A stretch of DNA of 64,000 bases. It comes from Eledone cirrhosa. Its lineage: Eukaryota. A model generated the notes under the pieces. The model saw nothing but the letters and a program-made list of their open reading frames with translations. It made no database searches and was not told the DNA's origin. The number at the start of each line of letters is the position of its first letter. Positions within the stretch are counted from its first letter, which is position 1. This document shows, one piece after another, positions 10,926-60,734 of this stretch. The DNA lies in assembly GCA_964016885.1 (NCBI GenBank), contig OZ024743.1:352098001-352162000 (forward strand). Reading direction: 5' to 3'. Both the position numbers and the translations under genes were made by a program.

Positions 10926-12798
10926 TACCTGGTTGATCCTGCCAGTAGTCATATGCTTGTCTCAAAGCTTAAGCCATGCAAGTGTAAGTTCATGCCGTAA
11001 ACGAATGGTGAAACCGCGAATGGCTCAGAAACCGGACCTAATCCTCGGGACCGTATTCCTCACCGCGAGGAGAGTGGATAACTGTGGCAATTCTAGAGCT
11101 AATACATGCAACTGAGGCCGCGATCGCAGGTCGCACCCGGGAGTCGGGTTACAAACGCGCTCAGCGTTCCATCGCTGTCGTCGTTCCGTCTTCCCGCGCG
11201 GTCCCAACAGATCGCGTCGACACGGTCGGCCTTTGCATTGGTCGCGGCGCAAATATTAGACTGAGACCGACGACGCGTTAGATGCCGTCAGCGCCGTTCG
11301 CAGTTCGCTGCGTGCCGGTTGCGCGGTGTCGCGCATCAATTCGACTTTGGTGACTCTGGATAACTGTCAGTACGATCGCACGGGCTTAGAATCGCTTCTG
11401 GCCTTCGCGCGACGGGTCCCCCGCGAGTCCGCCCTATCAACTGTCGACGGCCCGGTAAGTGCCGACCGTGGTGGCAACGGGTAACGGGGAATCAGGGTTC
11501 GATTCCGGAGAGGGAGCATGCGAAACGGCTACCACATCCAAGGAAGGCAGCAGGCGCGCAAATTACCCACTCCCGGCACGGGGAGGTAGTGACGAAAAAT
11601 AACGACGCGGGACTCTGTCGAGGCCCCGCGATCGGAATGAGTACACTTCAAATCCGTTAACGAGGATCGACCGGAGGGCAAGTCTGGTGCCAGCAGCCGC
11701 GGTAATTCCAGCTCCGGTAGCGTATATTAAAATTGTTGCGTTTGAAAAGCTCGTAGTCGGAATTCGGGTCTCGAAAGCGCGCTGCGTCGTCAGCGCGTTC
11801 GGGGCGACGGCGCCGTTGTCGTTCGCGCGCCGCGCGTCGACTTCGGTCGTCCGTTCGCACTCCCGGCCCTATTCGCCGGTGCGTGCGCGGTCGGGCCGCA
11901 GAGCTCTGCGTGCATCGCCGCTCGGCGTCACGGTGCGGACGTCGCGTTTTTACCTTCTTGCCACGCTTCTTGCCGTTCTTCTTGCCTATTTTCCTTTCCG
12001 CGTTCGGGGACGATGCGACGACGGCGCTTTTGCTTTATCGCGGGCGTTTGCCGTTCGCCTCTCGTTTTCGTTGCGGCGCTCCGGTCAGGGTTTGGAGTGT
12101 CGTCTCGCTTGGCTATTCGGTCGGTTCTTACGTCGTCGTGCCGTCACCTCGCCGCGGTCGCGCGTTCACCTCGCGGTTTTGTTTTTCTCTCCCTGCGCGT
12201 TTGCCTTTTTCTTTTCGAAAGGAGAGGTTCGTCGTCGCCAGGGTTGGATACGACGGCGTGATCGGTTTCGTCGTCGCGTCGTCTCGGCGCGTCGCTTTCC
12301 TGCGGCCGCCGTTTTGTCGTCGCGCGCGTCGTTCCGTTTCGCCGCCGATCCGCACGGTTCCTCCGAGGGTGCTCTTTACCGAGTGTCCGAGGCGGCCGGT
12401 ACGTTCACTGTGAAAAAATTAGAGTGCTCAGAGCGAGCCGCACCGGCTTGCATACGAAAAGCATGGAATGATGGAAAATGGCCTCGTCCGCGCGTCATCC
12501 GTCGGTCTCCGTTCACGACGAGGCAATGATCGAAGGGAGCGATCGGGGCCACTCGTATTGCGACGTTAGAGGTGAAATTCTTGGATCGTCGCAAGACGCA
12601 CTGCAGCGACGGCGTGTGGCAAGCACGTTTTCCTCGATCAAGAGCGAAAGTCGGAGGTTCGAAGACGATCAGATACCGTCGTAGTTCCGACCGTAAACGA
12701 TGCCGACTGGCGCTCCGCCGGCGTTCGCTTCGATGACCCGGCGGGGAGCCTGCGCGGGAAACTATAGTCGGTTCCGGGGGGAGTATGGTTGCAAAACA

Positions 12799-12844
<46 letters not shown>

Positions 12845-13553
12845 GCGGCTTAATTTGACTCAACACGGGAAAACTCACCCGGTCCGGACACCGGTAGGAT
12901 TGACAGATCGATAGCTCTTTCTCGATTCGGTGGGTGGTGGTGCATGGCCGTTCTTAGTTGGTAGAGCGATCCGTCTGGTTGATTTCGATAACGAACGAGA
13001 CTCCGGCCTGCTAACTAGCGCGTCGATTAGTGCTTTTCCGGTAGCATGGCGGCGCCGAAGCCGTCGTCGGTAAGCTGTCCTGCGTTCGTTTTTTTTCCCT
13101 TTTTCTTCGAGCTCGGGCTTCCGTTGCCGTTGCCGTCGTCGTCGCGTCGTCGTCGTCTTCTTCTTTCGCGAGTTCGCTTGCGGAATGGAGGAATGAAGGC
13201 AGCGCTGGCGGAGGCGGCGGTCGGTTTTTCGGGCTCGGGAGGGGGGGACCGGCGCGATCAGCCCCGGCGTCGGCACGTCGTCGCGTCCGGGCCAGTCGGT
13301 TGGCGAACGCAGCGCTTCTTAGAGGGACGGGCGGCAGAAAGCCGCACGAGGCGGAGCGATAACAGGTCTGTGATGCCCTTAGATGTCCGGAGCCGCACGC
13401 GCGCTACACTGGAGGTATCAGCGGGCGCCACTCCCCCGGCCCGAGAGGGTCGGGAAACCTCTGAACCACCTCCCGTGATAGGGATCGGGGCCTGGAACCA
13501 ACCCCGTGAACGAGGAATTCCCGGTAGGCGCGGGTCATCAGCCCGCGTCGATC

Positions 13554-13596
<43 letters not shown>

Positions 13597-13739
13597 CGAA
13601 CGGTCCGGTGAGGTCCTCGGATCTGGCCGACGAGTTCGCAGGCCGTGCGGCGGCGTTTCGATTCGGCCGTCAGGTCGGTTCGTTGCCGTCGTCGGTGCGC
13701 TCTCTGATGGCCCGGAGAAGACGACCGAACCCGATCGCT

Positions 13740-13797
<58 letters not shown>
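10926..13797 (+). rRNA. 18S rRNA: 18S rRNA (2872 nt, large V2/V4/V7 expansions)
   Basis: Starts tacctggttgatcctgccag; contains gtgccagcagccgcggtaa and aaacttaaaggaattgacgg; ends gtaggtgaacctgcggaaggatcatta. Confidence 0.98.
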
Positions 13798-15022: not shown

Positions 15023-16517
15023 GCTGCCCTCGACTCGGACGCGACTACCCGCCGAACTTAAGCATATCGCTAAGCGGAGGAAAAGAAACCAACCGGGATT
15101 CCCTTAGTAACGGCGAGTGAACTGGGAGGAGCCCAACGCTGAATCTCGTCGTCCGCAAGCAGGCCGTCGAGAGCTGTGGCGCAAGGGTCGTACACGGTCG
15201 TTCGTTTCGCCCGGCTAGGTTCGGAGTCCCCTCGATCGGGGCTGCCCAAAGCGGATGCCAGGCCCATTCGGAGCCGGCGGCGGTCGACAGTGTCTCTTTC
15301 TTCGGCCCGAGAGTCGGGTTGCTTGGGAACGCAGCCCAAAGCGGGTGGTAAGCTCCATCCAAGGCTAAATACCGGGACGAGTCCGATAGCCGACAAGTAC
15401 CGCGAGGGAAAGTTGAAAAGAACTTTGGAGAGAGAGTTCAAGAGACCGTGAAACCGCCCAGGGGTTAAACGGGTAGGACCGTTCACCGCGATCGCGAGGG
15501 GACTCAGTCCGCTGCTGTTTTAAGGCGCCGTCGTCGTCGGCGGCGGTCTCTCGTTTCGACGAGTCGACCGCCGACCGCCTCGCCGGCGTTACGATTCGCA
15601 GGGTGCCGGCATCGGACGCACTTCCCCTTCGATCCCTCGTCGCGACCCGTTCCCGTCAGGCTGGATGGCGCGCGGTGTCCGCAGGTCGCAGAGCGGCGTC
15701 CCGCCTAGAAAACGAACCATTCCCGGTTCGCTTTCGAAGCGGGTTTCCGAAAACAGCGCTTCTCTCGACCGGGCCCGTCGCTCGGCGGTGGTTTTCATCG
15801 TCCCAGGCACGGCTAACAGGCGGGGACGGGACAAACGCGCGTGTTCCTTTATTAGCCGCAGCGCCGTTCGTATATGCTTAGGTTGGTTTTTTTAAATATC
15901 CTTTAAAATTTCTGATCGGCTTTCGAGAAAGCGGCCGCCTCGTTCGCTCGCCCCGTTTGCTTTTTCTCTTTTGCTCTCTTTGCGGAGCAGGAGGGAGCGG
16001 GTCGCTGGGCGGACGAGGATCGCGAGCCGTCCGCTGCTGCAGGTCTGCGACGAGCATCGGCAACCTACCCGACCCGTCTTGAAACACGGACCGAGGAGTC
16101 CCAGTCGGTTGCGAGTCGTTGGAGCGAAAGAAATCGAATTTAACGAACTCCGACGGCGAAGTGAAAGCGAGAACGTGACGCGTCGTCGACGGCGGCGTTA
16201 GAGGCTGGTTTGAATTGACGGCATGCGGCATGGCCTTCGGGTCGTGTCGCTGTTGTTTTTTTCTTCTTTTTTCCGCGCCGTCGTAGGCGTTTCGAAGCAT
16301 CGTTCCCGGGTCGGGTGTGCGCGTCGCGTGGCGGCTTTCGGGCCGTCGGCGCGGCGCGCTCCGACTCAGGTGTAGCAGGCGGCCGGGGACCCGAAAGATG
16401 GCGATCCACGCCCGGTCGGGACGAAGCCAGAGGAAACTCTGGTGGAAGTCCGAAGCGCCTCTGACGTGCAAATCGATCGTCGGAACCGGGTGTAGGGGCG
16501 AAAGACCAATCGAGCCG

Positions 16518-16560
<43 letters not shown>

Positions 16561-18582
16561 CGCCAGCAGCAGACAGAACGACACGCAATTCCGTCCGGTA
16601 AAGCGAACGACTGGAGGCCCCGGGGACGTTGACGGCCTCGATCTACTCTCGAACTCGGAACGGGCGAAACGGGCCGCTCTCTCTCCCGATCGGAGGCGGC
16701 CGCCGTCTCGGCGACGAATGCACGGTGCCAAGTGGGCCACTTTTGGTAAGCAGAACTGGTGATGTGGGATGAACCGAACGTCCGGCTAAGGTGCCCTACG
16801 CTTCGCCCATTAGATCCCCGAAAGGGTGTCGGTCGATATAGACAGCAGGACGGTGGCCACGGAAGTCGGAATCCGCTCAGGAGTGTGTAACAACTTACCT
16901 GCCGAATCGACCGGCCCCGAAAATGGATGGCGCTGGAGCGAGCGACCGATGCCGGACCGGCCAGGCGATAGGCGAAAAAAGGTAACACGACGTAACTTTC
17001 TTCGATGCCTGGTCGAGTAGGAGGGCGCCGCGGCGTGCACGGAAGCCGCGGGCGTGAGCCGGGGTGAAGCCGACCGCGGGTGCAGATCTCGGTGGTAGTA
17101 GCAAATATTCGAACGAGACCTTCGAAGACCGAAGTGGAGAAGGGTTCCGTGCCAACGGCGGTCGAGCACGGGTCAGTCGGTCCTAAGAAGCGGGCGAAAG
17201 CTTGTACGAAAGGCGCCGGATCCGTTGTCGAGAAAGAGGAAAAAAAAAGAAAAAAACCCCTTTTTTTTTTTTGGCTTCTCTGTTTTTGTTACGGCCGGCC
17301 TTGCATCGAAAGGGAATCGGGTTAATATTCCCGAACCCGTACTCGGAGAGTGCTCGTCCGTCGGTGGAATTTAACGCGTCGTCGCGTCATCGAAGCCGGC
17401 GGTCGGGCGAAGCAGCGGCAACGCAAGCGAGCCCGGAGACGTTGCCGGGAGCCCTGGGAAGAGTTCTCTCTTCTTCGTAAAGGACCGCGTCCGTGGAATC
17501 GGCTCGTCCGGAGATACGGATATGGTACCTGTAGAGCGCCGCGTCTCGGGCGGCGTCCGGTGCGCTCTCGGCGGCCCTGGAAAATCCGGGTCCGTAACGA
17601 TTCGCAGCTCTCGAGTCGGTCCGTACCCACCATCCGCAGCAGGTCTCCAAGGTGTACAGCCTCTCGTCGATAGCGCCAATGTAGGTAAGAGAAGTCGGCA
17701 AAATGGATCCGTACCTTCGGAAGAAGGATTGGCTCCGAGGACCGGGTCGGTCGGGCCGTGTGTGTGTCGGCCTGTCGGCCGTCTTGTTGTTTTTTTCCAA
17801 AAACTCGGGATCGGTCGCGCGGCACGTCTGTACGCGAAGCGGTGAACCGGTACGGGGCTGTAGCGTTGGCGTCGGACTTGACGTTCGAGCGTCGGTCGGG
17901 TGGTCGATTTGCGCCCGTTTCGTTTGCGTTCGTTTCGTTTTTCCTTGCCCTTCTTTCGGTTGGCGGCGAGGAGAGAGAGGAAGAAGGCGGCGGCGGCGGC
18001 TGCGGGTTGGTCGCGCGGAGGCGGACGGGGTTTGTTGAAAGATTACCGCGGAGGAGGGATGAAGGCGTAGCAGTAGACGGGGGGAGAGGCTTGTCGCTCG
18101 CAAGGGCGGTTTGTTTTTTTTTTCGTTTTTCTGCTCGCTTTTGTTTTGTTCTTTCGGTTTTTTTTTCTCTTTCCTTTACTGTTCGTCGCAGTGCCGGCGG
18201 CTCGCGCGTCGTCGTCGTCTTTTTTTCTTCGTTTTCTTCGTTTTTGTCGGTCGGAAACAAAAACGGGGGGCTTGGAGAGGCGCTAGCTTGGCGTTGGCGA
18301 GCGGCGTTTCGGTCGGTTGCTTTTTGCGACGTTCGATGCGTAGTGGGCGCGAACAACACGGCTCCACGCCCGGGACACCGTGGAGCGACACGGTTTCGGG
18401 CTCGTTGGCGCGTCGGTTAGCTTCCTTTCTTTCTTGTTCGCGAGGAGGAGGGCGGTTGCCGAGACGCGCGGCAGGCGTTCGGCCGGCGGCGAACGGTCAA
18501 CTCGAAACTGGTACGGACCGGGGGAATCCGACTGTCTAATTAAAACAGAGCATCGCGTAGCCGGCCGAGCCGCATAGACGCG

Positions 18583-18614
<32 letters not shown>

Positions 18615-18630
18615 AGTGAAGAAATTCAAC

Positions 18631-18660
<30 letters not shown>

Positions 18661-18669
<9 letters not shown>

Positions 18670-18882
18670 GTCGGCGCTACCCTTGACGTGGGAAGAGAGC
18701 TTAAATCCGTGGTTAGAGCTGTACGAGTGAGTCAACTTGACGCGTACCTTTGGAAGTTTGACTCCTTTCGGAGGTTGGCGCCCTCTTCGAGGGGTCGGTT
18801 CCGGGGTGCGGGTTCGGGTTGGCTCGGCAGGTTTTACCATACTCGGTTGGTCTGCCACATTAAGGATGAACTAATTGGCGCC
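18661..18882 (+). ncRNA. HDV-like self-cleaving ribozyme fold spanning the 28S/insert 5' junction
   Basis: P1 ctctctt(18663-69)/aagagag(18693-99); P2 ggcgcta(18673-79)/tggcgcc(18876-82); P3 ccc(18680-82)/ggg(18690-92); 7-nt L3 ttgacgt; P4 base atcc/ggat plus gtgg/ccac; J4/2 aCtaat. Folded by eye. Confidence 0.75.
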
Positions 18883-19828
18883 TAAATTATGATTGTAATA
18901 ATTATATAAAAATCATATATCCGTACGGTAGCTGGGGGCCGTTTTAAAACCAGTAACCGAGGGGTCGGGATGGGCCCCTTAGGTTTACTAACTGCAGCGG
19001 GCCGCTGTGGTGGCTCCATGATCATTACAGCGAACGTGATGGGATGTGGAGTCGCCGTGGTGGCTTGCTGTGGTACTTAACCACCCTCGAGGGCTGACAG
19101 GGAGCCGGGATACGCCCTCTGGATTAGAGCCGGCTCAAACCTTTTTTTTTTTTTTTTTTTTTGTCCTTGTTTTTTTTTGTGTGGGCGCGGAAGTGCCTGG
19201 AAACTCTCTTCCTAGTTTTTTTTTTTTATTAACTCGGTGAGCGGTCGGATATAATATCCGAGAAGGAAAAGTAAGACGTCTCCGCCGTTCCGCTAGTCTG
19301 GTGGTTCGCCTTGGGAAAGCGATAGAACCACCTTATCCCCCCGTTGCAGGGTTACGCGTTGCTTAAAGGAAAGTGCTTTTTTTTATTATTAACAGTTTCG
19401 TTAATAATATTTTAGGAATAGGAAGGGAGTGATGAAATGGCTTCTGGAGCGCCCCACAACTTTTTTTATTTTTTTTTTATAGAGTACAATGTACGGCCAG
19501 GGAGTTTGGAGCCTCCCTGTGCGGGATTCCGGCAACAGGATCTCCGCGCGGGGTTCGGTTCCGGTTGCTTACTTGGTGCGTACAACCAAGTAAGCAACCG
19601 GGAGGGCTTAGTGTCTCGCATGGCTCGCTCGCTGAGGTGGCTCCCAGCCAGCCCCCGCGGGGTCCATGGCTTGGCCTGCTCTCTTGGCGTGACCAACCAA
19701 ATTTGACAGGGCACGCCGTTCATGCCATAGTTTGCTTGATGACGTTGGCCCGTGGGACCACCCACTTTAAAAAAAAGGGAAAGGCGGCTTATACTTTGCA
19801 AAAAGTATAAGTTAATAGCCAGCTAAAA
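18670..19828 (+). mobile_element. 1159-bp ORF-less insertion at the R2 target site (putative non-autonomous R2 derivative, SIDE-like)
   Basis: Canonical 28S gactctcttAAGGtagccaaatg reads gactctctt[insert ending gctaaaa]tatccaaatg here. The 3' junction is at the R2 first-strand nick, AAGG is lost, there is no TSD and no RT ORF, and the 5' end folds as an HDV-like ribozyme. Confidence 0.88.
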
Positions 19829-19831
19829 TAT

Positions 19832-19868
<37 letters not shown>

Positions 19869-19903
19869 CGGATCAACGAGATTCCCACTGTCCCTATCTA
19901 CTG

Positions 19904-19938
<35 letters not shown>

Positions 19939-19944
19939 CGGATC

Positions 19945-19985
<41 letters not shown>

Positions 19986-20555
19986 TTTTGTGAGGGCACA
20001 CGGTAGGCGTAGCATAGGCGGGAGCAATCTTGCGTCTCTCGGCTGGCGGCAGCGTCGTTTGCGGGTCGCTTGCGGCTTTGCGGCGGCGTTCGCCGTCTGT
20101 CGGGTACCGTGCGCGTTTGCGTCGATGAAAAACCGCCACTTCCGTAGTTTCTTCGCTCACTCGATTGAGAAGGGACGGGGCCGTCGCCGAGCGGTGGTTC
20201 ATTTATCTGGTGCGAAGCGTGCGGTGCATGTCGCGCGCGCACACGTTGTGCGCCGACGCAGCCGATGCGCGACCCTTAGTCGAGAACAGTGTCGGTCGGG
20301 GAGTTTGACTGGGGCGGTACGTCTGTCAAAGGGTAACGCAGGTGTCCCAAGGCGAGCTCAGCGTGGACGGAAACCACACGTTGAGCAAAAGGGCAAAAGC
20401 TCGCTCGATCTCGATTTTCAGTACGAATACGGACCGCGAAAGCGTGGCCCATCGATCCTTTCCGAATAGCGGCGAGCTATGCGTCCGCCGAGAGGTGTCA
20501 GAAAAGTTACCACAGGATAACTGGCTTGTGGCGGCCAAGCGTTCGCAGCGACGTC

Positions 20556-20593
<38 letters not shown>

Positions 20594-21682
20594 CGAAGCA
20601 GAATTCGCAAAGCGTTGGATTGTTCACCCACTAACAGGGAACGTGAGCTGGGTTTAGACTGTCGTGAGACAGGTTAGTTTTATCCTACCGATGCATTGCG
20701 TGTAGGCGGCGGCGGTGGCGGCTGCAGCCACCTTCTCGAAGGCGGCTGCGGTCGGCGTCGCCGCCGGCAACGTCAACTCGGCTACGGCTATCCCGTCCAG
20801 TACGAGAGGAACCGCGGGATCAGAGCAACGGTTTGCGCGCTCGCTCGATAGAGCGGTGGTGCCAGGCTGCCTCTGAGCGATAACGGCTGAACGCCTCTAA
20901 GCCGGAACCGTAGCCGGACCCGAGTTGTTTTTCGAAAGCGTCTCAACCTTCTTAAGGCGCATGCCTTAGTTTGGCGATTGCCGTCCGTTCGGCGAAGTCG
21001 CTTCCCTTTTCGGGGTGCGCGTCGTCGTCGGCGGCAGCGTCAGCGGAATTGCCATTCTGTGACGATTACGACGATTCGTCGTCGTTGTCGTCCGTTCGAT
21101 TTGTCGAAAGAGATCGAGACGAAAAGGATCGCTTGTATACGACTCGACTTGCCGTTCGGAGTGACGTGCTTAGTAGAGCAGCTACCACACTGCGATCTAT
21201 TGAGTCTCTTCTCACGAACGACACGATCCGCCCACCGAGGCGGCAGACACCAAAAAAAAAAAAAGAAATTTGAAAAGCGGCTAAGGAAGGAAGGAACGAA
21301 CGAACGAGAGATAGCAGCAGCAGCAGCAGCAGCTAGCGGGTTGGAGCAATGACTCGGTTTTCTTTCGACGGGTTAGCGTAGCAACAATGACGACGACAAC
21401 ATACAAACAAGTCCGCTCCTTAGCCGCCGCCAATTGTTAGGTTCGTTCTTTATTACACTTCCACCGCTGCTACTGCAAACCACCAACCACTTTCCGCGCG
21501 CCAACTTTTACGACGATTTCGCTCGCTCGCTCGCCGCTCGTTTGCCAGGTTGCGCCAACGACCCTCAAGGTCGATTAGCATCGAAAATAGAGAGAGTTCG
21601 CGGTGAATGCGACACAGCCTTGGTTCGAGTGCCGCCGATCCGTCTTCCGAGTTGGTTATTTTTGCGTGTGTTACACGTAGCC

Positions 21683-25770: not shown

Positions 25771-26020
25771 ACAGTTGAAAATTGCAAACTCGACTGTCAC
25801 CACATATCATGAACCTGAAGATTGCGAAAGCATGAAAGTACTTGTTCAATTAACACTTAGAATTTAATATTCTATCATACTATTTCATTATAATACCATA
25901 TTATATTATATATATTTTAAAGGATTGTAAATAAAACGAGTAAATCAGACAAAGTTGGAATTCCTCTTATTAATATAATCTTCTATACACAATCATACAC
26001 ACCCGTGTATATTTACCTAT
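25771..26020. repeat. ~240-bp dispersed repeat, second copy at ~28966-29205
   Basis: acagttgaaa.ttgcaaact.gactgtcaccaca...aatcatacacacccgtgtatattta occurs on both sides of the RTE element. Confidence 0.8.
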
Positions 26021-26744
26021 CTATATCTATATATATATATAGAGAGATTTATATATATGCATACATACACACAAGCACACACACACACACACATTTGCAA
26101 CTCTGCAGCACGTTTATTCTTATATTTACACATATTTTTTCTCCCGCTATGACCCGTCTATTTCGTTCTTACTGCTTCCTCTTTCTCTGTTCTTTACCCT
26201 CTCTAACAGTTACTCTCTCTGTTAGCCTCTTCCTCACCCTTCACTCACTCACTCTCTGTTACTACCTCTCCTCCTCCTCCTTCTTCCCGTTTGACCTGTG
26301 CGTAATTCTTTTCTTTCGCACGCTTGGTCAGGCTGGTTGGCATTTTTTCTCTCTCTCGTCTACGATTTCACAGAACTTATGTTTACCGAATTCACAGACT
26401 AGACCCCTTCTTCCTCCCGTTAGACCTGTGCTAAATTCCTTCCTTGCTCACATTTCAACCAGGTTTGGTGGTCTTTATTCTCTCTCGTTCACGATTTCAC
26501 AGAACTTATATTCATGGAAATTTTTGGACTTGACTCGCTCTTCCTCACTTTTCGTTGCTTCACCATCTTTGTTTGTTTACACTCTCGCTGTTCCCTTTAT
26601 TTACATGTCCCAACGACTTTCTTTTGCTGTTGTTCGCACCAACCGGAGGTATATGGTCTTTAAAGTGAAGAAATACCGATGATGGTTGGAAGATCACTGA
26701 TGAAGGGCCACTTTATTCATATATATATATATATGTGTGTGTGT

Positions 26745-28447
26745 GTGTTCCACATTGCAAGGCAGTGTGTCAATGCAAATCAGGATGTTGTTGGAGATAA
26801 ATGTGTCCGGGATGATGCCGGTGTACTTAGTGTCACAAATGATCAGAAAAAGGAGGCCTGGAAATGTCATTATGAGAGACTGATGAATGTGGAGAACGAA
26901 TGGGAGAGAGAGAAATTACCCTTAGTAGATCCAACAGAGGGACCAGCTATTGAGATTGACGAATATAGGGTTCAAGAGGCGATTAAGGAAATGAAAAATG
27001 GTAAGGCTGCTGGACCATCGGGAATAGTTGCTGAGATGCTGAAGGCATCAGGGGACGTAGGCACTAAACTGGTTGCACACATCATCAATCAGGCTATATA
27101 TGGTGTTGTCATACCCAAGGACTGGTGCAGCAGTATTCTCATAAATTGCTACAAAGGTAAAGGGGATGCTCGGGAGAGGAGCAATTATAGGGGTATAAAA
27201 CTGATGGATCAGGTTATGAAAGTGGCAGAAAGGATATTAGCACAACTAATTAGAGAAAGGGTCAAACTAGATGAGATGCAGTTTGGTTTTGTGCGTGGGA
27301 AGAGTACAACAGATGCCCTCTTCTTGGTGAGACAATTGCAAAAGAGGTTCTTAGAGAAAAATAAGCCACTATACTTAGCCTTTGTTGACCTAGAGAAGGC
27401 CTTTGATAGGGTAGCCCGATCTGTCATCTGGTGGTCCCTAAGGAAGCTAGGTGTTGAGGAATGGCTTGTGAGGACAGTGCAAACTTTGTACAGAGGTACT
27501 CTCAGTAAAGTCAGGGTAGGAATGGAGTTTAATGAGGAATTCCAGATACAAGTATGAGTACATCAAGGTTCGGTCCTCAGCCCGCTCTTGTTCATTATAG
27601 TCCTCCAAGCCATAACAGAGGAGTTTAAGACTGGCTGTCCATGGGAACTTCTCTATGCTGACGATCTGGTTCTTATAGCAGAATCAGTAGAGGAGCTAGA
27701 GAATAAATTCTGACTATGGAAACAGGAGTTGGAAGCAAGAGGACTGAGAGTGAACCTAGCTAAGACAAAAGTGATGATGAGTAGAAAAGAAGACAAAACT
27801 CTGATTCCGTCAGGGAAATGGCCATGTTCGATATGCAGAAAAGGAACTGGCATAAATTCTATAAAATGCACACAATGCAGATCCTGGGTACACAAGAGAT
27901 GTAGCGGGATAGCAGGCAAACTAACAGGTAGGGAGAAATATGTATGCAGTAGATGTACAGGGAAATTAGACACTAGAAGTCGCATTGATAGACACATTTT
28001 TCAAATGCAGGAGGGCGCTATAGAAGTGGTGGATAGCTTCCGGGACCTAGGAGATCAGATTAGCATGGGAGGAAGGTGTTCCGAGGCCATAGTATCAAGA
28101 ATAAGGACGGGTTGGAAGAAGTTTAGGGAGCAGCTTCCTCTGCTGACGAAGAAGTGGTTCTCCCTGCGTACGAAAGGCCGGTTGTATGATGACTGTGTGA
28201 GGAGCGTGATGCTGCATGGTAGTGAGACACGGGCAGCAACTGCAGAGGATATGCGACGGCTGGAGAGAAATGAAGCAAGCATGCTCCATTGGATGTGCAG
28301 TGTAAATGTGCGTGAATGACCCAGCATAAATGTGTTGAGAGAGAAACTGTGGTCTGATAGGGATAGAATGTAGTGTACAGGAGAGGAGACTGAGGTGGTA
28401 TGGACATGTGATGCGCATGGAGAATGACCGATGGGTGAAGAAGTGCG
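26745..28447 (+). mobile_element. 5'-truncated RTE-clade LINE, RT with PHD-like Cys motif, inactivated by stops
   Basis: GKAAGPSG, NYRGIKL, QFGF, AFVDLEKAFDRV, HQGSVLSP, LYADDL, CSICRKG...CTQCRSWVHKRC; stops at 27555 and 27711; embedded in TA/TG microsatellite. Confidence 0.92.
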
Positions 28448-28880
<433 letters not shown>

Positions 28881-29205
28881 CAACCAGTAAGACCCCGACG
28901 GCTGAGCTCAAGCCGTTTCGACGGCTAATTCATAATTGTGGTGACAGTCAAGTTTGCAATTTTCAACAGTTGAAAGTTGCAAACTTGACTGTCACCACAC
29001 ATTATGAACCTGAAAATTGCGAAAGCATGGAAGTACTTGTTCAATTAACACTTAACATTTAATATTCTACCATACTATTTCATTCTAATACCATTATAAA
29101 TTTTAAAGGATTGTAAATAAAACGAGTAAATCAGACGAAGTTGGAATTCCTTTTATTAATATAATCTTCTATACTCAATCATACACACCCGTGTATATTT
29201 ATCTA

Positions 29206-30177
<972 letters not shown>

Positions 30178-30520
30178 AAAGTTCTATTTAAATTGTTGGG
30201 ATACAACAAGCAAATATTTTTATAACTGATATAAAGCACTCAACAAATAATTAGAGTAAAAATACGATATTAACAAATGGAAACTATATTTATAAAACCA
30301 TATTTATTTCATTATACATATTTCAAGGACACCAAGTTAAATTATGGTGTGCTTTCATCAGATAAAATATAATATAGAGCAGTTTTATAAATAAATATTG
30401 ACATACTCTTAAAGAATGCAACCATTATTATTGGAAGCTCCCGGATAGTGGAGTTATATCTTTAATTATACTATTAGGTAAGTTAGTATTGGATATTTTT
30501 AAATAAGCCGTTGGGTTACG

Positions 30521-30583
30521 GAGAAAGAGAAAGAGAGAGAGAGAGAGCAGAACAACAGAGAGTAAAAGAGAGAGAGAGAGAGG

Positions 30584-30638
<55 letters not shown>

Positions 30639-30657
30639 AAGAGACAGGAGAGAGAGC
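30521..30657. repeat. (GA)n microsatellite
   Basis: Direct reading. Confidence 0.95.
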
Positions 30658-31020
30658 GAAAACTCTAAGTCATATCTTGTTGAGTTATCTTGACATTTGA
30701 GATGAAATGAATAAATAAAATTAGAAATGTTAATAATCATGAATGGAAGATACATATATAATATGAGAAATTTAACCATTGTTTAAATATGATTAAATGT
30801 TTAGTTAGTCAGTTAAAATATTGAGATCAATACATTAAAAATTGAGATCTATATATTAAGAAATCTATATATTATTATTAAGACTATATTATTAAAAATC
30901 TATATATTATATAACACATGCACACGCAAAAATTATTACTAACAATTTTAACTATTTTAACAATTTTAACTATTTTAACAATTTATCAACTATAATAGAA
31001 AACCTTACAATAATTCCGAA

Positions 31021-31221
31021 AACAAAAAAAGAAATAGAACTAGGAACATATTATGGTTCGCTCCTCCTTTCTCATTAAATATTAAAACCCCTATTGCTAA
31101 ACTATTTTTTAAAGCTCTTGACAAATGCTTCCCTAGAACACATAGATATTATTCAATCTTTAATAGACGTACAATAAAATTAACTTATTCTTCCACCAAA
31201 AACTTAGTGCAAAATATTATT
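31021..31221 (+). pseudogene. Penelope-like element linker fragment
   Basis: Manual translation NKKRNRTRNILWFAPPFSLNIKTPIAKLFFKALDKCFPRTHRYYSIFNRRTIKLTYSSTKNL matches the PLE RxRNIIWFNPPFS...IFNRNTxKxSYS region. Confidence 0.75.
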
Positions 31222-34000
31222 CGAAGTTCGTAGATGTTGTCGGAGAGATGCGACATTCAAATGTTGTCTGGACTGATGTTAGACCTCTGCCTCCCTTCTT
31301 ACGTTTCAAGTAAAGGCGGTCTATGTCAATGTTGATGTGGAAGTTTCCGGTGTTGTTCAGTATTTTTCGAGTTCTAACATCAACTGCTCGGATTTCGTCT
31401 ATCGTCCAATTGAGTATTCCAAACGTTGGTGTTAGGACAGGCACAGCAAACACATTGTGAGCCACTGTTTTGTTTTGCGCAGAGAGTTCCGATGACCAGA
31501 TCTTTCTTAATCGGGTGTAGTATTCCCTGGTTACGCGTTCTTTATTACAGATACATTTAATGGATATGTTCTCATCTATACCCAGGTATCTGTAGCAGTC
31601 CTCATCAGATATCGGTGAAACAGTTAGACCACTGATGACAATGTTGCTAGATTGGGTTGTTGTTTTTCCCCACTTTACAGTCATGTATGAGCATTTATCT
31701 TGGCCAAACTCCATTCCTATATCCTTTGAGAACGTTGTAACCAGGTCAAGATTTTTCTTCATCCCATCCATGTTCTTGGCAAAGAGTTTCAGATCGTCCA
31801 CAAAGAAGTTATGGGTTAGGTTCGTATTTCTGTCCTCCTGTGAGCCAATGATGTATCCCTCACATTTCTTGAGCAGATAGGACAAGGGGTTTAATGACAA
31901 GATGAACAATATCACAGAGAGACTGTCCGCCTGAAATATACCCCTGCAATATTTTATTTTATCAGTGAAAATAGAGTCCTCCCTCTCTGTCTTTAACCTT
32001 AGGATAGTAGCCCAAGAAGAAGACAGCCTCTCTATGGCTCTGATAATAATGTCTGGGACTTTAGCAAGTTGGAGGGCCTCTATCATCCAAGAGTGGGGAA
32101 CAGAATCGAAAGCTTTCCTGTAGTCCAGCCAGACTGTTGTCATATTCCTCCTAAGTTGTCGCACCTCCGACATCGCAGTTTTGTTGATTAGGAGTTGTTC
32201 AGCACATCCCCAAACCCTTTTCTTTCCAGCTGCTTGTTCATCTGTGATGATGTTATTATTTTCACAGTGATCTTGGAGGAATAGGTTCAGGCAGGCTGTA
32301 TACATCTTATACATCAGGTTCTGGCATGCAATGGGTCGGTAGTTTTTTTGCCAAGTGGGTGTCTTTGTTCTTGGGGACCAGTAACGTTTGTGCTAATGTC
32401 AACCATTCTGGTATAAGTGTATCTCCCTTAAGAGCTTGTTGGTAGAGGTCAGTAAGATACCTCCGATAGAAAATTAGTTTTTTGTACCAGTAGCCGACAA
32501 TCATGTCTCTTCCTGGTGTTTTCTTATCTTGGAGTTTTCCTATCACAGTCTCAAGGGTACCCTCACTTATTTCGTATGTTTTTGTTGTAGTGTAGGAGCA
32601 ATAGTTCTTTCGGATTTCTCTTAGCCACACTGCATCTTGGTTGAAATTCTTCTTTTCACCCCATATTTTTCTCCAAAAGGAATCTATGTCTTTCTTGGAA
32701 TCTATGTCTTTCTTTCTCAGCGACACTTATTATTTTGCCTTTCATATCTCTATAGACTGATGTTTGGTTTCGTCTGAATCTTTTATTAAGCATTTTCCTC
32801 TCATCTACCTTCTTCAGGTATCAGCGTTTTTCGCTAACAGCTCTCAATTCTTCTTTGAGGGTGATCAGCCTATATTGGAGAGTTCTGGTTCTACTGTTAC
32901 CAAACATCGTCTCTATTTTATTTTTCACTCTTTGTTGGTGAGGAGTGAGGTTTTTTGTGTTTGTTTGCATGTAAGGAGCATTGTCACATACATGTCCTAT
33001 GTTTTTTCGTAGGTCAGCACTCTTTTTTTATTTTAGTTATATATGATGGTATTTTTGGTGGTGTTTTGTTCTTGTTAATATCTCTGCTATCACCAAGATA
33101 AAGCTTCACTGTCATTGCTAAGGCATATAAACAGGCGTTGATTTGCCAAAATGTTGGGGTTTTTATCCGTCGTAAATATTCATCCACTATTTCGTCAATA
33201 ACACGTAGTATTTCATTATTTGGTTTTTTATTCACAATTGTCATTTTAACACGTTCAGCAAGAGAGATATTTATACATGAGTTAATTTCTCTCTGGAAGA
33301 TTTCGTTGAGGGAAATTTTCAATTGTTTATACTTTTGATTATCATTATCGATAGTATTTTCCACAACAGTCGAGGTAGACTCGGATGGTATACGTGGTGT
33401 CACATTTATTCGATTATTATTATTATTATCGATAGTGTTTTCCCCAGAATTCGAAGTAGACTTAGATGGTACAGGTGGTGTCAAGTTTCTTACAGGCATA
33501 GGTGTTTCAAGGCGCTGTTCGCCCTGGCTGCTAGGAAGTCTAGTAGCATGGTGATCTGTATCATGTGTTGTTGATTCCATGTTTGTTGTGGGGGATTTAC
33601 GATTAATAATATTTATCTTATTTTTACGTTCAACAAACGTCGCTTGTTGGCGTAATTGTTTCGATGTGAAATAATTTAGCTCTGGGTGCATTTCGTCCCA
33701 GTGTAGCTTCATTCTATTCATATAGCCAACTGAGGGATTGTTTTTTGCCATTTTATAACAATTAAATAAATCATTATTAAGTTCGCAACTCCAAGAGAAA
33801 TGCGTTTTATAATTTCGGTTTCTTCTGTAGCTACAACTGAATACAGTTTGATTACCTTCTTTGTTATTTGTCTTCGATACTTCCTTATTTTTTTGTTGAT
33901 GTGTTCAGCCATGCTGTTTGTAGAAAATCCTTGTAAAATGAATTATGTATTTAGTCGGATTTCTCTACGAATTCGAATAAAAGTTGTCTTCAGAAGGGAT
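31222..34000 (-). mobile_element. non-LTR retrotransposon of the RLE group (R4/Dong/NeSL-like), frameshifted and 3'-truncated
   Basis: KTPGRD, EQAAGKKRVWGCAEQLLINK, WLDYRKAFDSVPHSW, RGIFQADSLS, FFVDDLK, RLYLKRKKGGRGL in several broken ORFs; no endonuclease domain seen. Confidence 0.85.
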
Positions 34001-34117
34001 AGTTAGAAGAATAACCAGTTATTCAACCGGGCTGTAGTTGTGGCATTATTGTCGGAGATAGTATTCATCTTAAATTTAATAAATAGTCTCCCACGCCAAA
34101 ATATGCGACTGATCGCG

Positions 34118-34318
<201 letters not shown>

Positions 34319-35240: not shown

Positions 35241-35249
35241 GCTTTAAAG

Positions 35250-51874: not shown

Positions 51875-51920
<46 letters not shown>

Positions 51921-53565: not shown

Positions 53566-55656
53566 CACGATACAATCGCGATGTCTGCTGTTTCGCCATG
53601 CGCCGCCCGCTCACGAGAGTGAGAGATGAAAGAGAGAAACACATCCGCCTTTTGCGCTGCTGCCGCTGCCCGCCTTAGCGAAGCGCAGTTTCTTTTCTTT
53701 TTCTCTTCTCTTTTGCGCCATGGTAACAGCGGGAAGTCGGGAGTCGCAGAAGAAGCGAGAGTCGTCGCTCGCGGAACGCTCCGTCTCCCGTATTGAAATA
53801 ATAACTAACACTTTTCGTCGTTATTTTTCTTTATTTCTCGCCGTTCGCTTCGGAGATCGTCGCACGGAAAGAGAAAGATTTAGAAGAAGGGAAGACGAGA
53901 AGGGTAAAAAGAAACGCAGTAACACAGGCGCGGTCGTTGTTCGTCGGCCGGCGTTCGCTCTGCGAGTCGCCAAAAACACAAAGCGTTCGTGTCGGCCGAC
54001 GAGAAACGATTTCGATTCCGCTTCTTTTTTTCCCATTTCTCTCGTCTTTTCCACATTCCGCCTTGGCGCCCGCTCTATATCGCCAACCTCTTCTTTATCA
54101 ATGCCGCCTTCTTCTTACCGTCCTCGTTCTTCGTATTCAGCGTATTCGGCGTATGCGAATAGCTGCCCTCGACTCGGACGCGACTACCCGCCGAACTTAA
54201 GCATATCGCTAAGCGGAGGAAAAGAAACCAACCGGGATTCCCTTAGTAACGGCGAGTGAACTGGGAGGAGCCCAACGCTGAATCTCGTCGTCCGCAAGCA
54301 GGCCGTCGAGAGCTGTGGCGCAAGGGTCGTACACGGTCGTTCGTTTCGCCCGGCTAGGTTCGGAGTCCCCTCGATCGGGGCTGCCCAAAGCGGATGCCAG
54401 GCCCATTCGGAGCCGGCGGCGGTCGACAGTGTCTCTTTCTTCGGCCCGAGAGTCGGGTTGCTTGGGAACGCAGCCCAAAGCGGGTGGTAAGCTCCATCCA
54501 AGGCTAAATACCGGAACGAGTCCGATAGCCGACAAGTACCGCGAGGGAAAGTTGAAAAGAACTTTGGAGAGAGAGTTCAAGAGACCGTGAAACCGCCCAG
54601 GGGTTAAACGGGTAGGACCGTTCACCGTGATCGCGAGGGGACTCAGTCCGCTGCTGTTTTAAGGCGCCGTCGTCGTCGGCGGCGGTCTCTCGTTTCGACG
54701 AGTCGACCGCCGACCGCCTCGCCGGCGTTACGATTCGCAGGGTGCCGGCATCGGACGCACTTCCCCTTCGATCCCTCGTCGCGACCCGTTCCCGTCAGGC
54801 TGGATGGCGCGCGGTGTCCGCAGGTCGCAGAGCGGCGTCCCGCCTAGAAAACGAACCATTCCCGGTTCGCTTTCGAAGCGGGTTTCCGAAAACAGCGCTT
54901 CTCTCGACCGGGCCCGTCGCTCGGCGGTGGTTTTCATCGTCCCAGGCACGGCTAACAGGCGGGGACGGGACAAACGCGCGTGTTCCTTTATTAGCCGCAG
55001 CGCCGTTCGTATATGCTTAGGTTGGTTTTTTTAAATATCCTTTAAAATTTCTGATCGGCTTTCGAGAAAGCGGCCGCCTCGTTCGCTCGCCCCGTTTGCT
55101 TTTTCTCTTTTGCTCTCTTTGCGGAGCAGGAGGGAGCGGGTCGCTGGGCGGACGAGGATCGCGAGCCGTCCGCTGCTGCAGGTCTGCGACGAGCATCGGC
55201 AACCTACCCGACCCGTCTTGAAACACGGACCGAGGAGTCCCAGTCGGTTGCGAGTCGTTGGAGCGAAAGAAATCGAATTTAACGAACTCCGACGGCGAAG
55301 TGAAAGCGAGAACGTGACGCGTCGTCGACGGCGGCGTTAGAGGCTGGTTTGAATTGACGGCATGCGGCATGGCCTTCGGGTCGTGTCGCTGTTGTTTTTT
55401 TCTTCTTTTTTCCGCGCCGTCGTAGGCGTTTCGAAGCATCGTTCCCGGGTCGGGTGTGCGCGTCGCGTGGCGGCTTTCGGGCCGTCGGCGCGGCGCGCTC
55501 CGACTCAGGTGTAGCAGGCGGCCGGGGACCCGAAAGATGGCGATCCACGCCCGGTCGGGACGAAGCCAGAGGAAACTCTGGTGGAAGTCCGAAGCGCCTC
55601 TGACGTGCAAATCGATCGTCGGAACCGGGTGTAGGGGCGAAAGACCAATCGAGCCG

Positions 55657-55699
<43 letters not shown>

Positions 55700-57721
55700 C
55701 GCCAGCAGCAGACAGAACGACACGCAATTCCGTCCGGTAAAGCGAACGACTGGAGGCCCCGGGGACGTTGACGGCCTCGATCTACTCTCGAACTCGGAAC
55801 GGGCGAAACGGGCCGCTCTCTCTCCCGATCGGAGGCGGCCGCCGTCTCGGCGACGAATGCACGGTGCCAAGTGGGCCACTTTTGGTAAGCAGAACTGGTG
55901 ATGTGGGATGAACCGAACGTCCGGCTAAGGTGCCCTACGCTTCGCCCATTAGATCCCCGAAAGGGTGTCGGTCGATATAGACAGCAGGACGGTGGCCACG
56001 GAAGTCGGAATCCGCTCAGGAGTGTGTAACAACTTACCTGCCGAATCGACCGGCCCCGAAAATGGATGGCGCTGGAGCGAGCGACCGATGCCGGACCGGC
56101 CAGGCGATAGGCGAAAAAAGGTAACACGACGTAACTTTCTTCGATGCCTGGTCGAGTAGGAGGGCGCCGCGGCGTGCACGGAAGCCGCGGGCGTGAGCCG
56201 GGGTGAAGCCGACCGCGGGTGCAGATCTCGGTGGTAGTAGCAAATATTCGAACGAGACCTTCGAAGACCGAAGTGGAGAAGGGTTCCGTGCCAACGGCGG
56301 TCGAGCACGGGTCAGTCGGTCCTAAGAAGCGGGCGAAAGCTTGTACGAAAGGCGCCGGATCCGTTGTCGAGAAAGAGGAAAAAAAAAGAAAAACCCCCCC
56401 TTTTTTTTTTTGGCTTCTCTGTTTTTGTTACGGCCGGCCTTGCATCGAAAGGGAATCGGGTTAATATTCCCGAACCCGTACTCGGAGAGTGCTCGTCCGT
56501 CGGTGGAATTTAACGCGTCGTCGCGTCATCGAAGCCGGCGGTCGGGCGAAGCAGCGGCAACGCAAGCGAGCCCGGAGACGTTGCCGGGAGCCCTGGGAAG
56601 AGTTCTCTCTTCTTCGTAAAGGACCGCGTCCGTGGAATCGGCTCGTCCGGAGATACGGATATGGTACCTGTAGAGCGCCGCGTCTCGGGCGGCGTCCGGT
56701 GCGCTCTCGGCGGCCCTGGAAAATCCGGGTCCGTAACGATTCGCAGCTCTCGAGTCGGTCCGTACCCACCATCCGCAGCAGGTCTCCAAGGTGTACAGCC
56801 TCTCGTCGATAGCGCCAATGTAGGTAAGAGAAGTCGGCAAAATGGATCCGTACCTTCGGAAGAAGGATTGGCTCCGAGGACCGGGTCGGTCGGGCCGTGT
56901 GTGTGTCGGCCTGTCGGCCGTCTTGTTGTTTTTTTCCAAAAACTCGGGATCGGTCGCGCGGCACGTCTGTACGCGAAGCGGTGAACCGGTACGGGGCTGT
57001 AGCGTTGGCGTCGGACTTGACGTTCGAGCGTCGGTCGGGTGGTCGATTTGCGCCCGTTTCGTTTGCGTTCGTTTCGTTTTTCCTTGCCCTTCTTTCGGTT
57101 GGCGGCGAGGAGAGAGAGGAAGAAGGCGGCGGCGGCGGCTGCGGGTTGGTCGCGCGGAGGCGGACGGGGTTTGTTGAAAGATTACCGCGGAGGAGGGATG
57201 AAGGCGTAGCAGTAGACGGGGGGAGAGGCTTGTCGCTCGCAAGGGCGGTTTGTTTGTTTTTTCGTTTTTCTGCTCGCTTTTGTTTTGTTCTTTCGGTTTT
57301 TTTTTCTCTTTCCTTTACTGTTCGTCGCAGTGCCGGCGGCTCGCGCGTCGTCGTCGTCTTTTTTTCTTCGTTTTCTTCGTTTTTGTCGGTCGGAAACAAA
57401 AACGGGGGGCTTGGAGAGGCGCTAGCTTGGCGTTGGCGAGCGGCGTTTCGGTCGGTTGCTTTTTGCGACGTTCGATGCGTAGTGGGCGCGAACAACACGG
57501 CTCCACGCCCGGGACACCGTGGAGCGACACGGTTTCGGGCTCGTTGGCGCGTCGGTTAGCTTCCTTTCTTTCTTGTTCGCGAGGAGGAGGGCGGTTGCCG
57601 AGACGCGCGGCAGGCGTTCGGCCGGCGGCGAACGGTCAACTCGAAACTGGTACGGACCGGGGGAATCCGACTGTCTAATTAAAACAGAGCATCGCGTAGC
57701 CGGCCGAGCCGCATAGACGCG

Positions 57722-57753
<32 letters not shown>

Positions 57754-57769
57754 AGTGAAGAAATTCAAC

Positions 57770-57799
<30 letters not shown>

Positions 57800-57808
<9 letters not shown>

Positions 57809-58021
57809 GTCGGCGCTACCCTTGACGTGGGAAGAGAGCTTAAATCCGTGGTTAGAGCTGTACGAGTGAGTCAACTTGACGCGTACCTTTGGAAGTTTGA
57901 CTCCTTTCGGAGGTTGGCGCCCTCTTCGAGGGGTCGGTTCCGGGGTGCGGGTTCGGGTTGGCTCGGCAGGTTTTACCATACTCGGTTGGTCTGCCACATT
58001 AAGGATGAACTAATTGGCGCC
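57800..58021 (+). ncRNA. HDV-like ribozyme fold, copy 2
   Basis: Same pairing elements as 18661-18882. Confidence 0.75.
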
Positions 58022-58966
58022 TAAATTATGATTGTAATAATTATATAAAAATCATATATCCGTACGGTAGCTGGGGGCCGTTTTAAAACCAGTAACCGAG
58101 GGGTCGGGATGGGCCCCTTAGGTTTACTAACTGCAGCGGGCCGCTGTGGTGGCTCCATGATCATTACAGCGAACGTGATGGGATGTGGAGTCGCCGTGGT
58201 GGCTTGCTGTGGTACTTAACCACCCTCGAGGGCTGACAGGGAGCCGGGATACGCCCTCTGGATTAGAGCCGGCTCAAACCTTTTTTTTTTTTTTTTTTTT
58301 TGTCCTTGTTTTTTTTTGTGTGGGCGCGGAAGTGCCTGGAAACTCTCTTCCTAGTTTTTTTTTTTTATTAACTCGGTGAGCGGTCGGATATAATATCCGA
58401 GAAGGAAAAGTAAGACGTCTCCGCCGTTCCGCTAGTCTGGTGGTTCGCCTTGGGAAAGCGATAGAACCACCTTATCCCCCCGTTGCAGGGTTACGCGTTG
58501 CTTAAAGGAAAGTGCTTTTTTTTATTATTAACAGTTTCGTTAATAATATTTTAGGAATAGGAAGGGAGTGATGAAATGGCTTCTGGAGCGCCCCACAACT
58601 TTTTTTTTTTTTTTTTATAGAGTACAATGTACGGCCAGGGAGTTTGGAGCCTCCCTGTGCGGGATTCCGGCAACAGGATCTCCGCGCGGGGTTCGGTTCC
58701 GGTTGCTTACTTGGTGCGTACAACCAAGTAAGCAACCGGGAGGGCTTAGTGTCTCGCATGGCTCGCTCGCTGAGGTGGCTCCCAGCCAGCCCTCGCGGGG
58801 TCCATGGCTTGGCCTGCTCTCTTGGCGTGACCAACCAAATTTGACAGGGCACGCCGTTCATGCCATAGTTTGCTTGATGACGTTGGCCCGTGGGACCACC
58901 CACTTTAAAAAAAAGGGAAAGGCGGCTTATACTTTGCAAAAAGTATAAGTTAATAGCCAGCTAAAA
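57809..58966 (+). mobile_element. 1158-bp ORF-less R2-site insertion, copy 2
   Basis: gactctctt[gtcggcgc...gctaaaa]tagccaaatgcc; the downstream target is canonical in this copy. Confidence 0.9.
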
Positions 58967-59006
<40 letters not shown>

Positions 59007-59041
59007 CGGATCAACGAGATTCCCACTGTCCCTATCTACTG

Positions 59042-59076
<35 letters not shown>

Positions 59077-59083
59077 CGGATCG

Positions 59084-59123
<40 letters not shown>

Positions 59124-59693
59124 TTTTGTGAGGGCACACGGTAGGCGTAGCATAGGCGGGAGCAATCTTGCGTCTCTCGGCTGGCGGCAGCGTCGTTTGC
59201 GGGTCGCTTGCGGCTTTGCGGCGGCGTTCGCCGTCTGTCGGGTACCGTGCGCGTTTGCGTCGATGAAAAACCGCCACTTCCGTAGTTTCTTCGCTCACTC
59301 GATTGAGAAGGGACGGGGCCGTCGCCGAGCGGTGGTTCATTTATCTGGTGCGAAGCGTGCGGTGCATGTCGCGCGCGCACACGTTGTGCGCCGACGCAGC
59401 CGATGCGCGACCCTTAGTCGAGAACAGTGTCGGTCGGGGAGTTTGACTGGGGCGGTACGTCTGTCAAAGGGTAACGCAGGTGTCCCAAGGCGAGCTCAGC
59501 GTGGACGGAAACCACACGTTGAGCAAAAGGGCAAAAGCTCGCTCGATCTCGATTTTCAGTACGAATACGGACCGCGAAAGCGTGGCCCATCGATCCTTTC
59601 CGAATAGCGGCGAGCTATGCGTCCGCCGAGAGGTGTCAGAAAAGTTACCACAGGATAACTGGCTTGTGGCGGCCAAGCGTTCGCAGCGACGTC

Positions 59694-59731
<38 letters not shown>

Positions 59732-60734
59732 CGAAGCAGAATTCGCAAAGCGTTGGATTGTTCACCCACTAACAGGGAACGTGAGCTGGGTTTAGACTGT
59801 CGTGAGACAGGTTAGTTTTATCCTACCGATGCATTGCGTGTAGGCGGCGGCGGTGGCGGCTGCAGCCACCTTCTCGAAGGCGGCTGCGGTCGGCGTCGCC
59901 GCCGGCAACGTCAACTCGGCTACGGCTATCCCGTCCAGTACGAGAGGAACCGCGGGATCAGAGCAACGGTTTGCGCGCTCGCTCGATAGAGCGGTGGTGC
60001 CAGGCTGCCTCTGAGCGATAACGGCTGAACGCCTCTAAGCCGGAACCGTAGCCGGACCCGAGTTGTTTTTCGAAAGCGTCTCAACCTTCTTAAGGCGCAT
60101 GCCTTAGTTTGGCGATTGCCGTCCGTTCGGCGAAGTCGCTTCCCTTTTCGGGGTGCGCGTCGTCGTCGGCGGCAGCGTCAGCGGAATTGCCATTCTGTGA
60201 CGATTACGACGATTCGTCGTCGTTGTCGTCCGTTCGATTTGTCGAAAGAGATCGAGACGAAAAGGATCGCTTGTATACGACTCGACTTGCCGTTCGGAGT
60301 GACGTGCTTAGTAGAGCAGCTACCACACTGCGATCTATTGAGTCTCTTCTCACGAACGACACGATCCGCCCACCGAGGCGGCAGACACCAAAAAAAAAAA
60401 AAGAAATTTGAAAAGCGGCTAAGGAAGGAAGGAAGGAAGGAACGAACGAACGAGAGATAGCAGCAGCAGCAGCAGCAGCTAGCGGGTTGGAGCAATGACT
60501 CGGTTTTCTTTCGACGGGTTAGCGTAGCAACAATGACGACGACGACATACAAACAAGTCCGCTCCTTAGCCGCCGCCAATTGTTAGGTTCGTTCTTTATT
60601 ACACTTCCACCGCTGCTACTGCAAACCACCAACCACTTTCCGCGCGCCAACTTTTACGACGATTTCGCTCGCTCGCTCGCCGCTCGTTTGCCAGGTTGCG
60701 CCAACGACCCTCAAGGTCGATTAGCATCGAAAAT

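Follow-up and report, generated by a model that had tools for sequence, protein, structure and literature searches.

The 28S genes of a short rDNA cluster in the octopus Eledone cirrhosa are interrupted at the R2 site by a non-coding insert, which raises the question of whether this sequence is a remnant of an R2 retrotransposon, an intron of the host gene, or a unit that spreads in its own right. Our analysis points strongly to the last of these: the insert is, with high probability, a non-coding R2 derivative with an internal deletion, a family in its own right that occupies the R2 site of 28S and likely spreads non-autonomously (an R2 SIDE).

The window, the whole 64,000-nucleotide stretch analysed, contains two rDNA units about 39 kb apart, with 18S at 10926-13797 and 50002-52873. 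The 28S gene of unit 1 (15025..21231, + strand) is interrupted by copy 1 (18670..19828, +, 1,159 bp), which is preceded by GACTCTCTT and followed by TATCCAAATG; a private G>T change lies in the downstream TAGCC of this unit. In unit 2 (28S at 54164..60369, +), copy 2 (57809..58966, +, 1,158 bp) has the same upstream flank and TAGCCAAATG downstream. The two copies differ by one substitution and one homopolymer base, share the orientation of 28S, and both fall within Rfam matches to eukaryotic LSU. In both units the insert replaces AAGG of 28S, and inspection of the junctions revealed no target site duplication, as the initial annotation had described. The insert has no coding capacity: stop-free stretches reach at most 124 aa across the six frames, and a tblastn search with the resident 1,214-aa R2 protein gave no match at E 0.01. 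The annotated coordinates, junctions, and lack of an open reading frame were right. The insert does end in AAAA, but this is not a poly(A) tail because its relatives end in GCC(A/G)GCTA followed by ACA, ACC, CCA, CAA, or TCA.

Directly upstream of the window lies a third copy that shares this 5′ junction, and no further rDNA was found in the stretches that come next in both directions. These copies therefore represent one insertion followed by duplication to three units; the initial annotation correctly reported a copy in both units, but these are not two separate events, and the trio is by itself uninformative on mobility. Given that all three units carry the insert, the cluster likely makes no functional 28S. 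The 18S at 10926-13797 measures 2,872 nt, compared with 1,831 positions in the model; coleoid cephalopods typically have very long 18S genes. The 39-kb spacer holds, at 25900-38700, retroelement fragments (frames at 26664-28316 on the + strand, and at 31220-33904 and 37837-38622 on the − strand) together with long (TA)n tracts.

By extending partial matches in the same genome, we found two ORF-bearing R2 lineages. Lineage 1, hereafter the parent, comprises L097, L098, L101-L103, and others, and lineage 2 is represented by L092; their proteins match solved R2 proteins with E-values of 1.6e-114 and 4.6e-142, respectively, and Pfam RVT_1 was found in both. Both ends of the parent have counterparts in the insert. 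Insert positions 3-345 align to parent positions 2-278 with 226/274 identical columns (about 82%), and this alignment runs on to about insert position 467 against parent position 371, the part at 310-470 having a score of 59 against a shuffle maximum of 32. Insert positions 498-1156 align to positions 3958-4544 of the L102 element, in which the parent stop lies at 3813, with 421/572 columns identical (74% over ungapped columns). In window coordinates on the + strand, the predicted ribozyme described below is followed by decayed parent 5′ UTR and the first ~65 codons, with SIDE-specific expansions and no open frame (18883..19136), a T-rich joint (19137..19166), and parent-derived 3′ UTR (19167..19828). 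About 3.6 kb of the parent, including nearly the entire ORF, is absent at the joint: the zinc fingers, Myb, reverse transcriptase (RT), endonuclease, stop codon, and first ~140 nt of the 3′ UTR. Alignment of lineage 2 to the insert revealed no likeness beyond the ribozyme core, and we rejected lineage 2 as the source of the 3′ end, as there is no similarity to the lineage-2 3′ UTR (local score 23). A tree of four shared blocks separated 12 SIDE copies from seven parent copies with 100% bootstrap support; it omits window copy 2, L013, and the truncated copies, and its L117 and L121 entries lack the last block. Judged by these alignments and the tree, the SIDE joins the two ends of a resident R2 lineage across an internal deletion and constitutes its own clade.

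The 5′ end is predicted to form an HDV-like ribozyme (18663..18882, +). In the predicted fold, P1 pairs the 28S bases CTCTCTT (18663-18669) with AAGAGAG (18693-18699), P2 pairs GGCGCTA (18673-18679) with TGGCGCC (18876-18882), and P3 consists of CCC/GGG around the loop L3, TTGACGT (18680-18692). These are completed by a single G-C pair as P1.1, a P4 domain of about 166 nt, and J4/2 (18868-18875, GAACTAAT), in which C18871 (18871..18871) is the predicted catalytic cytosine, a role assigned from the HDV fold; all elements are on the + strand. The head fits an HDV-like fold provided that the 28S gene supplies the 5′ strand of P1. All 34 distinct heads found carry GAAC[T/A]AA in J4/2. P2 covaries over four sequence types among these heads, with GGCGCYA/TGGCGCC in SIDEs, GGCACCA/TGGTGCC in the parent, CCACAC/GTGTGG in lineage 2, and AACGCCT/AGGCGTT in old copies, and 27/34 heads have a P2 of 6–7 pairs in the expected register. 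Across 10 aligned heads, 98.4% of core cells pair compared with 36–55% when the register is slid; both sides changed in only 2/25 pairs, a count equalled by 149/500 shuffles, and P1, P3, and P1.1 are invariant in alignment A1 and contribute no covariation there. Our HDV descriptor, written from this same fold, matched the real 300-nt region and one of 2,000 dinucleotide shuffles. Rfam returned no ribozyme or intron model in the insert (eight weak matches at E up to 10), and the HDV assignment therefore rests on our own descriptor and on covariation. Minimum-free-energy folding, which cannot show a pseudoknot, recovered P2 and the P4 arm (z −3.85). The 5′ ribozyme proposed initially is thus supported as an HDV-like fold above chance, with self-cleavage as a prediction.

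Cleavage is predicted at −11 in 28S, with C at +1 instead of the usual G. A −13 register, which has an A-C mismatch, is less likely because AAGAGAG is followed by C where U would pair with A−12. The same C follows AAGAGAG in three Octopus R2 rows of Table S2 in Hassan et al. (2026; PMC13188248), which have P3 GCC/GGC and then the same AAGAGAGCT. A −28 site was rejected, as it offers no partner for P1′ AAGAGAG and no more than 5–6 nt of 28S remain at the heads of off-target copies. A C at +1 has a counterpart in PMC3774820, which reports confirmed cleavage at −29, likewise a C in conserved 28S sequence. The 5–6 nt of 28S kept at the heads of off-target copies L008, L102, and L106 fit the prediction of a 7-nt tag.

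The 3′ end had also been described as structured, and this agrees with the terminal hairpin that we predict in the parent-derived 3′ UTR (19788..19811, +), where compensatory changes occur over SIDE and parent copies. Among 13 SIDE and parent 3′ ends, 6/22 predicted pairs were compensatory, mostly in this hairpin, and the covariation score was reached by 0/500 shuffles, a lenient control given that the structure was derived from the same alignment. The hairpin is likely part of the signal recognized by R2 protein.

Which R2 protein might copy the SIDE depends on the state of the two resident lineages. The initial annotation had predicted a full-length R2 relative, and an ORF-bearing lineage with the same ends does exist, but an intact copy was not assembled: none of the 17 parent stretches examined has a complete ORF (the search scored 40 of 46 candidates, in an assembly from which the main rDNA array is probably missing). 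The longest parent frame, 995 aa in L097, lacks the endonuclease, and L102 spans the entire R2 protein with a broken frame. The only complete R2 ORF found belongs to lineage 2 (L092:764-4405; G000:C2, about 166.888-166.892 Mb), an apparently complete stop-to-stop frame of 1,214 aa in which motif reading identified three zinc fingers, Myb, RT, CCHC, and endonuclease, and which sits in a 28S flank of 0% divergence. These observations would favor a scenario with the same anatomy in which the SIDE outlived its parent and is now mobilized by the second resident lineage, unlike it in the 3′ UTR. We consider this unlikely, given that the SIDE 3′ end does not resemble the lineage-2 3′ UTR, that a parent-type 3′ hairpin has been kept under covariation, that parent 5′ ends L038 and L045 lie in 28S flanks of 99% identity, and that intact parents may reside in the probably unassembled main array. 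Similarly doubtful is a broader version in which an old SIDE outlived its parent, holds more 28S sites than autonomous R2, is copied by the other lineage despite the unlike 3′ UTR, and includes one subfamily that traps R2s at its own 28S target. We therefore retain the parent lineage as the most likely helper. A search for proteins closely related to that of the parent yielded only three matches, at 30–32% identity.

Several features of these lineages were observed in passing. Lineage-2 R2 elements start with a TAGCCAA-like copy of the downstream target (L092:575-620; L005:2700-2740; L098:5680-5705), which seems to recreate the insertion site, and SIDE and parent elements are inserted directly before lineage-2 R2, forming tandem arrays, for example at C18:15.04-15.08 Mb. 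A separate 517-bp internal deletion of the parent, found once (L027:984-1500; C18:15044168), joins parent positions 2-375 to 4419-4545 at 89–93% identity and contains both ribozyme and 3′ hairpin; it is possibly a newborn second SIDE.

The check proposed initially, a search of the insert against its genome, revealed a family of copies. In the E. cirrhosa assembly (G000, 3.0 Gb), with 40 of 51 candidates scored, the insert had at least 73 matches, including at least 15 full-length copies on seven contigs (C2, C3, C4, C6, C7, C12, and C25), besides one copy interrupted by a nested R2, two that are truncated, and three fragments. Pairwise identity among copies was 81–100% with gaps excluded, and a 156-nt SIDE-specific segment, at 18985-19140 of the window, had 18 matches, all inside SIDE copies. 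Of the 16 full-length or nested-split copies, 15 occupy the 28S site and one is off-target, a distribution quite different from the many non-rDNA sites with target site duplications that would have contradicted an R2-type element. We also searched with the 170 nt that precede the R2 site, scoring 40 of 44 candidates; of the 23 best matches, 15 were followed by a SIDE, five by parent-lineage R2, one by second-lineage R2, and one by a 13-nt filler, and one was empty. An exact search likewise found a single empty R2 site, and therefore the main rDNA array is probably unassembled and these proportions do not describe it. Public run X1 yielded contigs that span 30/30 bins of the insert and include the 28S 5′ junction; the deepest carry variants that agree with the C12/C25 subfamily at 31 and 29 of 34 compared sites, their depth not being a copy number and not used as one. 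In run X5, from another study, seven raw reads pass from the shared 3′ end into TAGCC, for which a parent origin is possible.

Could this family instead be a dead R2 deletion copy, multiplied only by rDNA unit duplication and dispersal, as in R2Br-deg of the stick insect (Martoni et al., 2015; PMC4370867)? Beyond this precedent, passive spread is consistent with the unit duplicates among the copies (the window trio, L012/L013, and L006/L007) and with the lack of an intact parent ORF in the assembly. The junctions argue otherwise. While all 14 SIDE copies abutting downstream 28S join it at the first base of TAGCC, the independent 5′ junction variants that the initial annotation had suggested looking for do occur: at least four are non-canonical and R2-type, namely L009 with an additional CT, L005 and L006/7 with duplicated upstream 28S, and L016 with a 9-nt deletion. 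A full-length copy in a (CA)n tract has no 28S flanks and still carries CTCTT at its head, and one SIDE copy lies immediately in front of a lineage-2 R2 (L005/L108). Moreover, the 28S flanks around 11 copies are just 0–0.4% diverged from the empty unit even though the copies themselves differ by up to 8% in substitutions; the flanks of the basal subfamily (four loci) are 1.1–3.8% diverged. These divergences suggest repeated insertion over time, with the limit that flanks homogenized by gene conversion could appear younger than the inserts they surround. The compensatory changes seen in P2 and in the 3′ hairpin also speak against a dead sequence, and we regard purely passive spread as very improbable. 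The combined sequence evidence indicates that the SIDE likely propagates as its own family by target-primed reverse transcription (TPRT) through independent insertions. L010 is a truncated copy; L015, the one apparent 5′ truncation in 28S, was considered as a TPRT product but, given its 4-nt microhomology, is better read as a later deletion.

Other copies and sites display features of their own. The basal subfamily contains, at about insert position 321, an internal copy of ~70–90 nt of the 28S just upstream of the R2 site (L020:1854-1940, L019:1421-1493, L093:1099-1253, and L106:3029-3100); L093 carries a duplication of this internal target, and its SIDE is split by a lineage-2 R2 inserted there. 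A 70-bp satellite (L087:1500-3117; G000:C6, about 50.98-51.26 Mb) derives from the 28S just downstream of the R2 site, and in L087 its 28S-like part begins exactly at TAGCC, the position of the R2 nick. The 13-nt filler mentioned above replaces TAAGG at the R2 site of an rDNA unit (L111:4681-4693; C1:80.9457 Mb) and is possibly the scar of an aborted insertion.

Two further explanations can be set aside from the sequence itself. An intron, whether spliced or self-splicing, or an rRNA expansion that leaves 28S functional would account for a structured RNA, for inserts in the majority of assembled units, and for a position close to that of a known group I intron, but it is already refuted by an R2-derived sequence in which Rfam matches no intron at E up to 10, an end in A in place of a terminal G, an exact removal that would leave 28S without AAGG, junctions that vary among copies, and the existence of an empty unit. 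A simple 5′-truncated R2 would explain the last ~660 nt, which are R2 3′ UTR, but is equally refuted by the first ~467 nt, which correspond to the extreme 5′ end of the parent, ribozyme included, in agreement with the initial view of a complete non-autonomous unit not collinear with the R2 3′ end alone.

We propose that the SIDE would be co-transcribed with its rDNA unit by Pol I and that the HDV-like ribozyme would cut 11 nt upstream of the R2 nick, releasing an RNA that begins with 28S-derived CUCUCUU. This RNA would be bound at its retained 3′ UTR by an R2 protein acting in trans, most likely one encoded by the parent lineage. The protein would then nick the target at AAGG|TAGC and copy the RNA into cDNA. 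The 28S-complementary end of the cDNA would then anneal upstream, which would account for the loss of AAGG in every copy and for the slipped CT junctions. The window copies themselves multiplied through rDNA unit duplication after one insertion.

Our literature search, conducted with subscription journals, Repbase, and Dfam outside its scope, found no R2 SIDE outside Drosophila. A CR1-derived SIDE appears in the literature, and R2 SIDEs, predicted to be rare and precarious, are reported solely from Drosophila in the texts searched. The term "non-autonomous" is absent from the main text of two 2026 R2 surveys, with zero occurrences in that of PMC13188248 (four of its 16 supplementary files being outside the scope), and the covered portion of PMC5035012 reports no SIDEs alongside mollusc R2. 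Our results suggest that the SIDE strategy has arisen in a mollusc, diversified into subfamilies, and reached 15/23 assembled 28S sites. Such an element would be a natural R2 template RNA shaped only for copying in trans, with a predicted 5′ ribozyme leaving a short 28S tag and a covarying 3′ hairpin. R2-based gene insertion faces the same design problem, and comparison of SIDE and parent points to the RNA features that matter; the SIDE also offers a direct test of R2 proteins on non-cognate 3′ UTRs in nature.

Among known elements, R2-1_ECi of E. cirrhosa (Hassan et al., 2026; PMC13188248) reads in its Table S2 row the same as L097, over the first ~400 residues, ~400 bases, and the 995-aa ORF compared, and thus represents the parent lineage; L092 differs from it. 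R2-1_ECi shares the ribozyme core and 3′ end with the SIDE but is the ORF-bearing parent, of which the L097 copy lacks the endonuclease region. The R2 ribozymes in the portion of Eickbush et al. (2013; PMC3774820) considered here share with the SIDE an HDV-like double pseudoknot with the P1 5′ strand taken from 28S, a fixed small target deletion, and occasional 28S duplications at the junction, and the kinds of SIDE 5′ junction are those described there for R2. Cleavage sites are named there at −9 to −36, explicitly −13, −25, −27, −28, and −29, and the predicted SIDE site at −11 is not among the named positions; the SIDE L3 is UUGACGU with a G-C P1.1 pair, in contrast to the CCUCCUCGUGG type of those ribozymes.

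The nearest comparison outside Drosophila is R2Br-deg of Bacillus rossius, likewise a non-coding R2 derivative persisting in rDNA beside a functional lineage. According to PMC4370867, R2Br-deg has kept its full length, its ribozyme is dead, its junctions are uniform, and it spreads passively by unequal recombination; the octopus SIDE, in contrast, has an internal deletion, junctions that vary, and one off-target copy. The closest counterpart is R2Dwi_SIDE of Drosophila willistoni (Eickbush and Eickbush, 2012; PMC3414825), a 529-bp element that was the single pure R2 SIDE to emerge when 39 Drosophila species were surveyed. Both elements join an R2 5′ ribozyme to an R2 3′ UTR, lack an ORF, insert at the R2 site, have varied 5′ junctions, and are ~20–35% diverged from the parent with structure kept. 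The octopus element differs in its mollusc host, its length of 1.16–1.37 kb, and its lack of a poly(A) tail, in subfamilies up to 19% apart compared with <3%, and in one subfamily with an internal copy of the 28S target. Its P1 is predicted to use 28S bases, whereas Drosophila ribozymes cut at the element's own end, and the Drosophila SIDE ribozyme was shown to cleave, whereas cleavage by the octopus SIDE is predicted. Every feature of an R2 SIDE in PMC3414825 that can be assessed from sequence was found here, and we are therefore confident in placing the octopus element in this known but rare kind, now in a mollusc.
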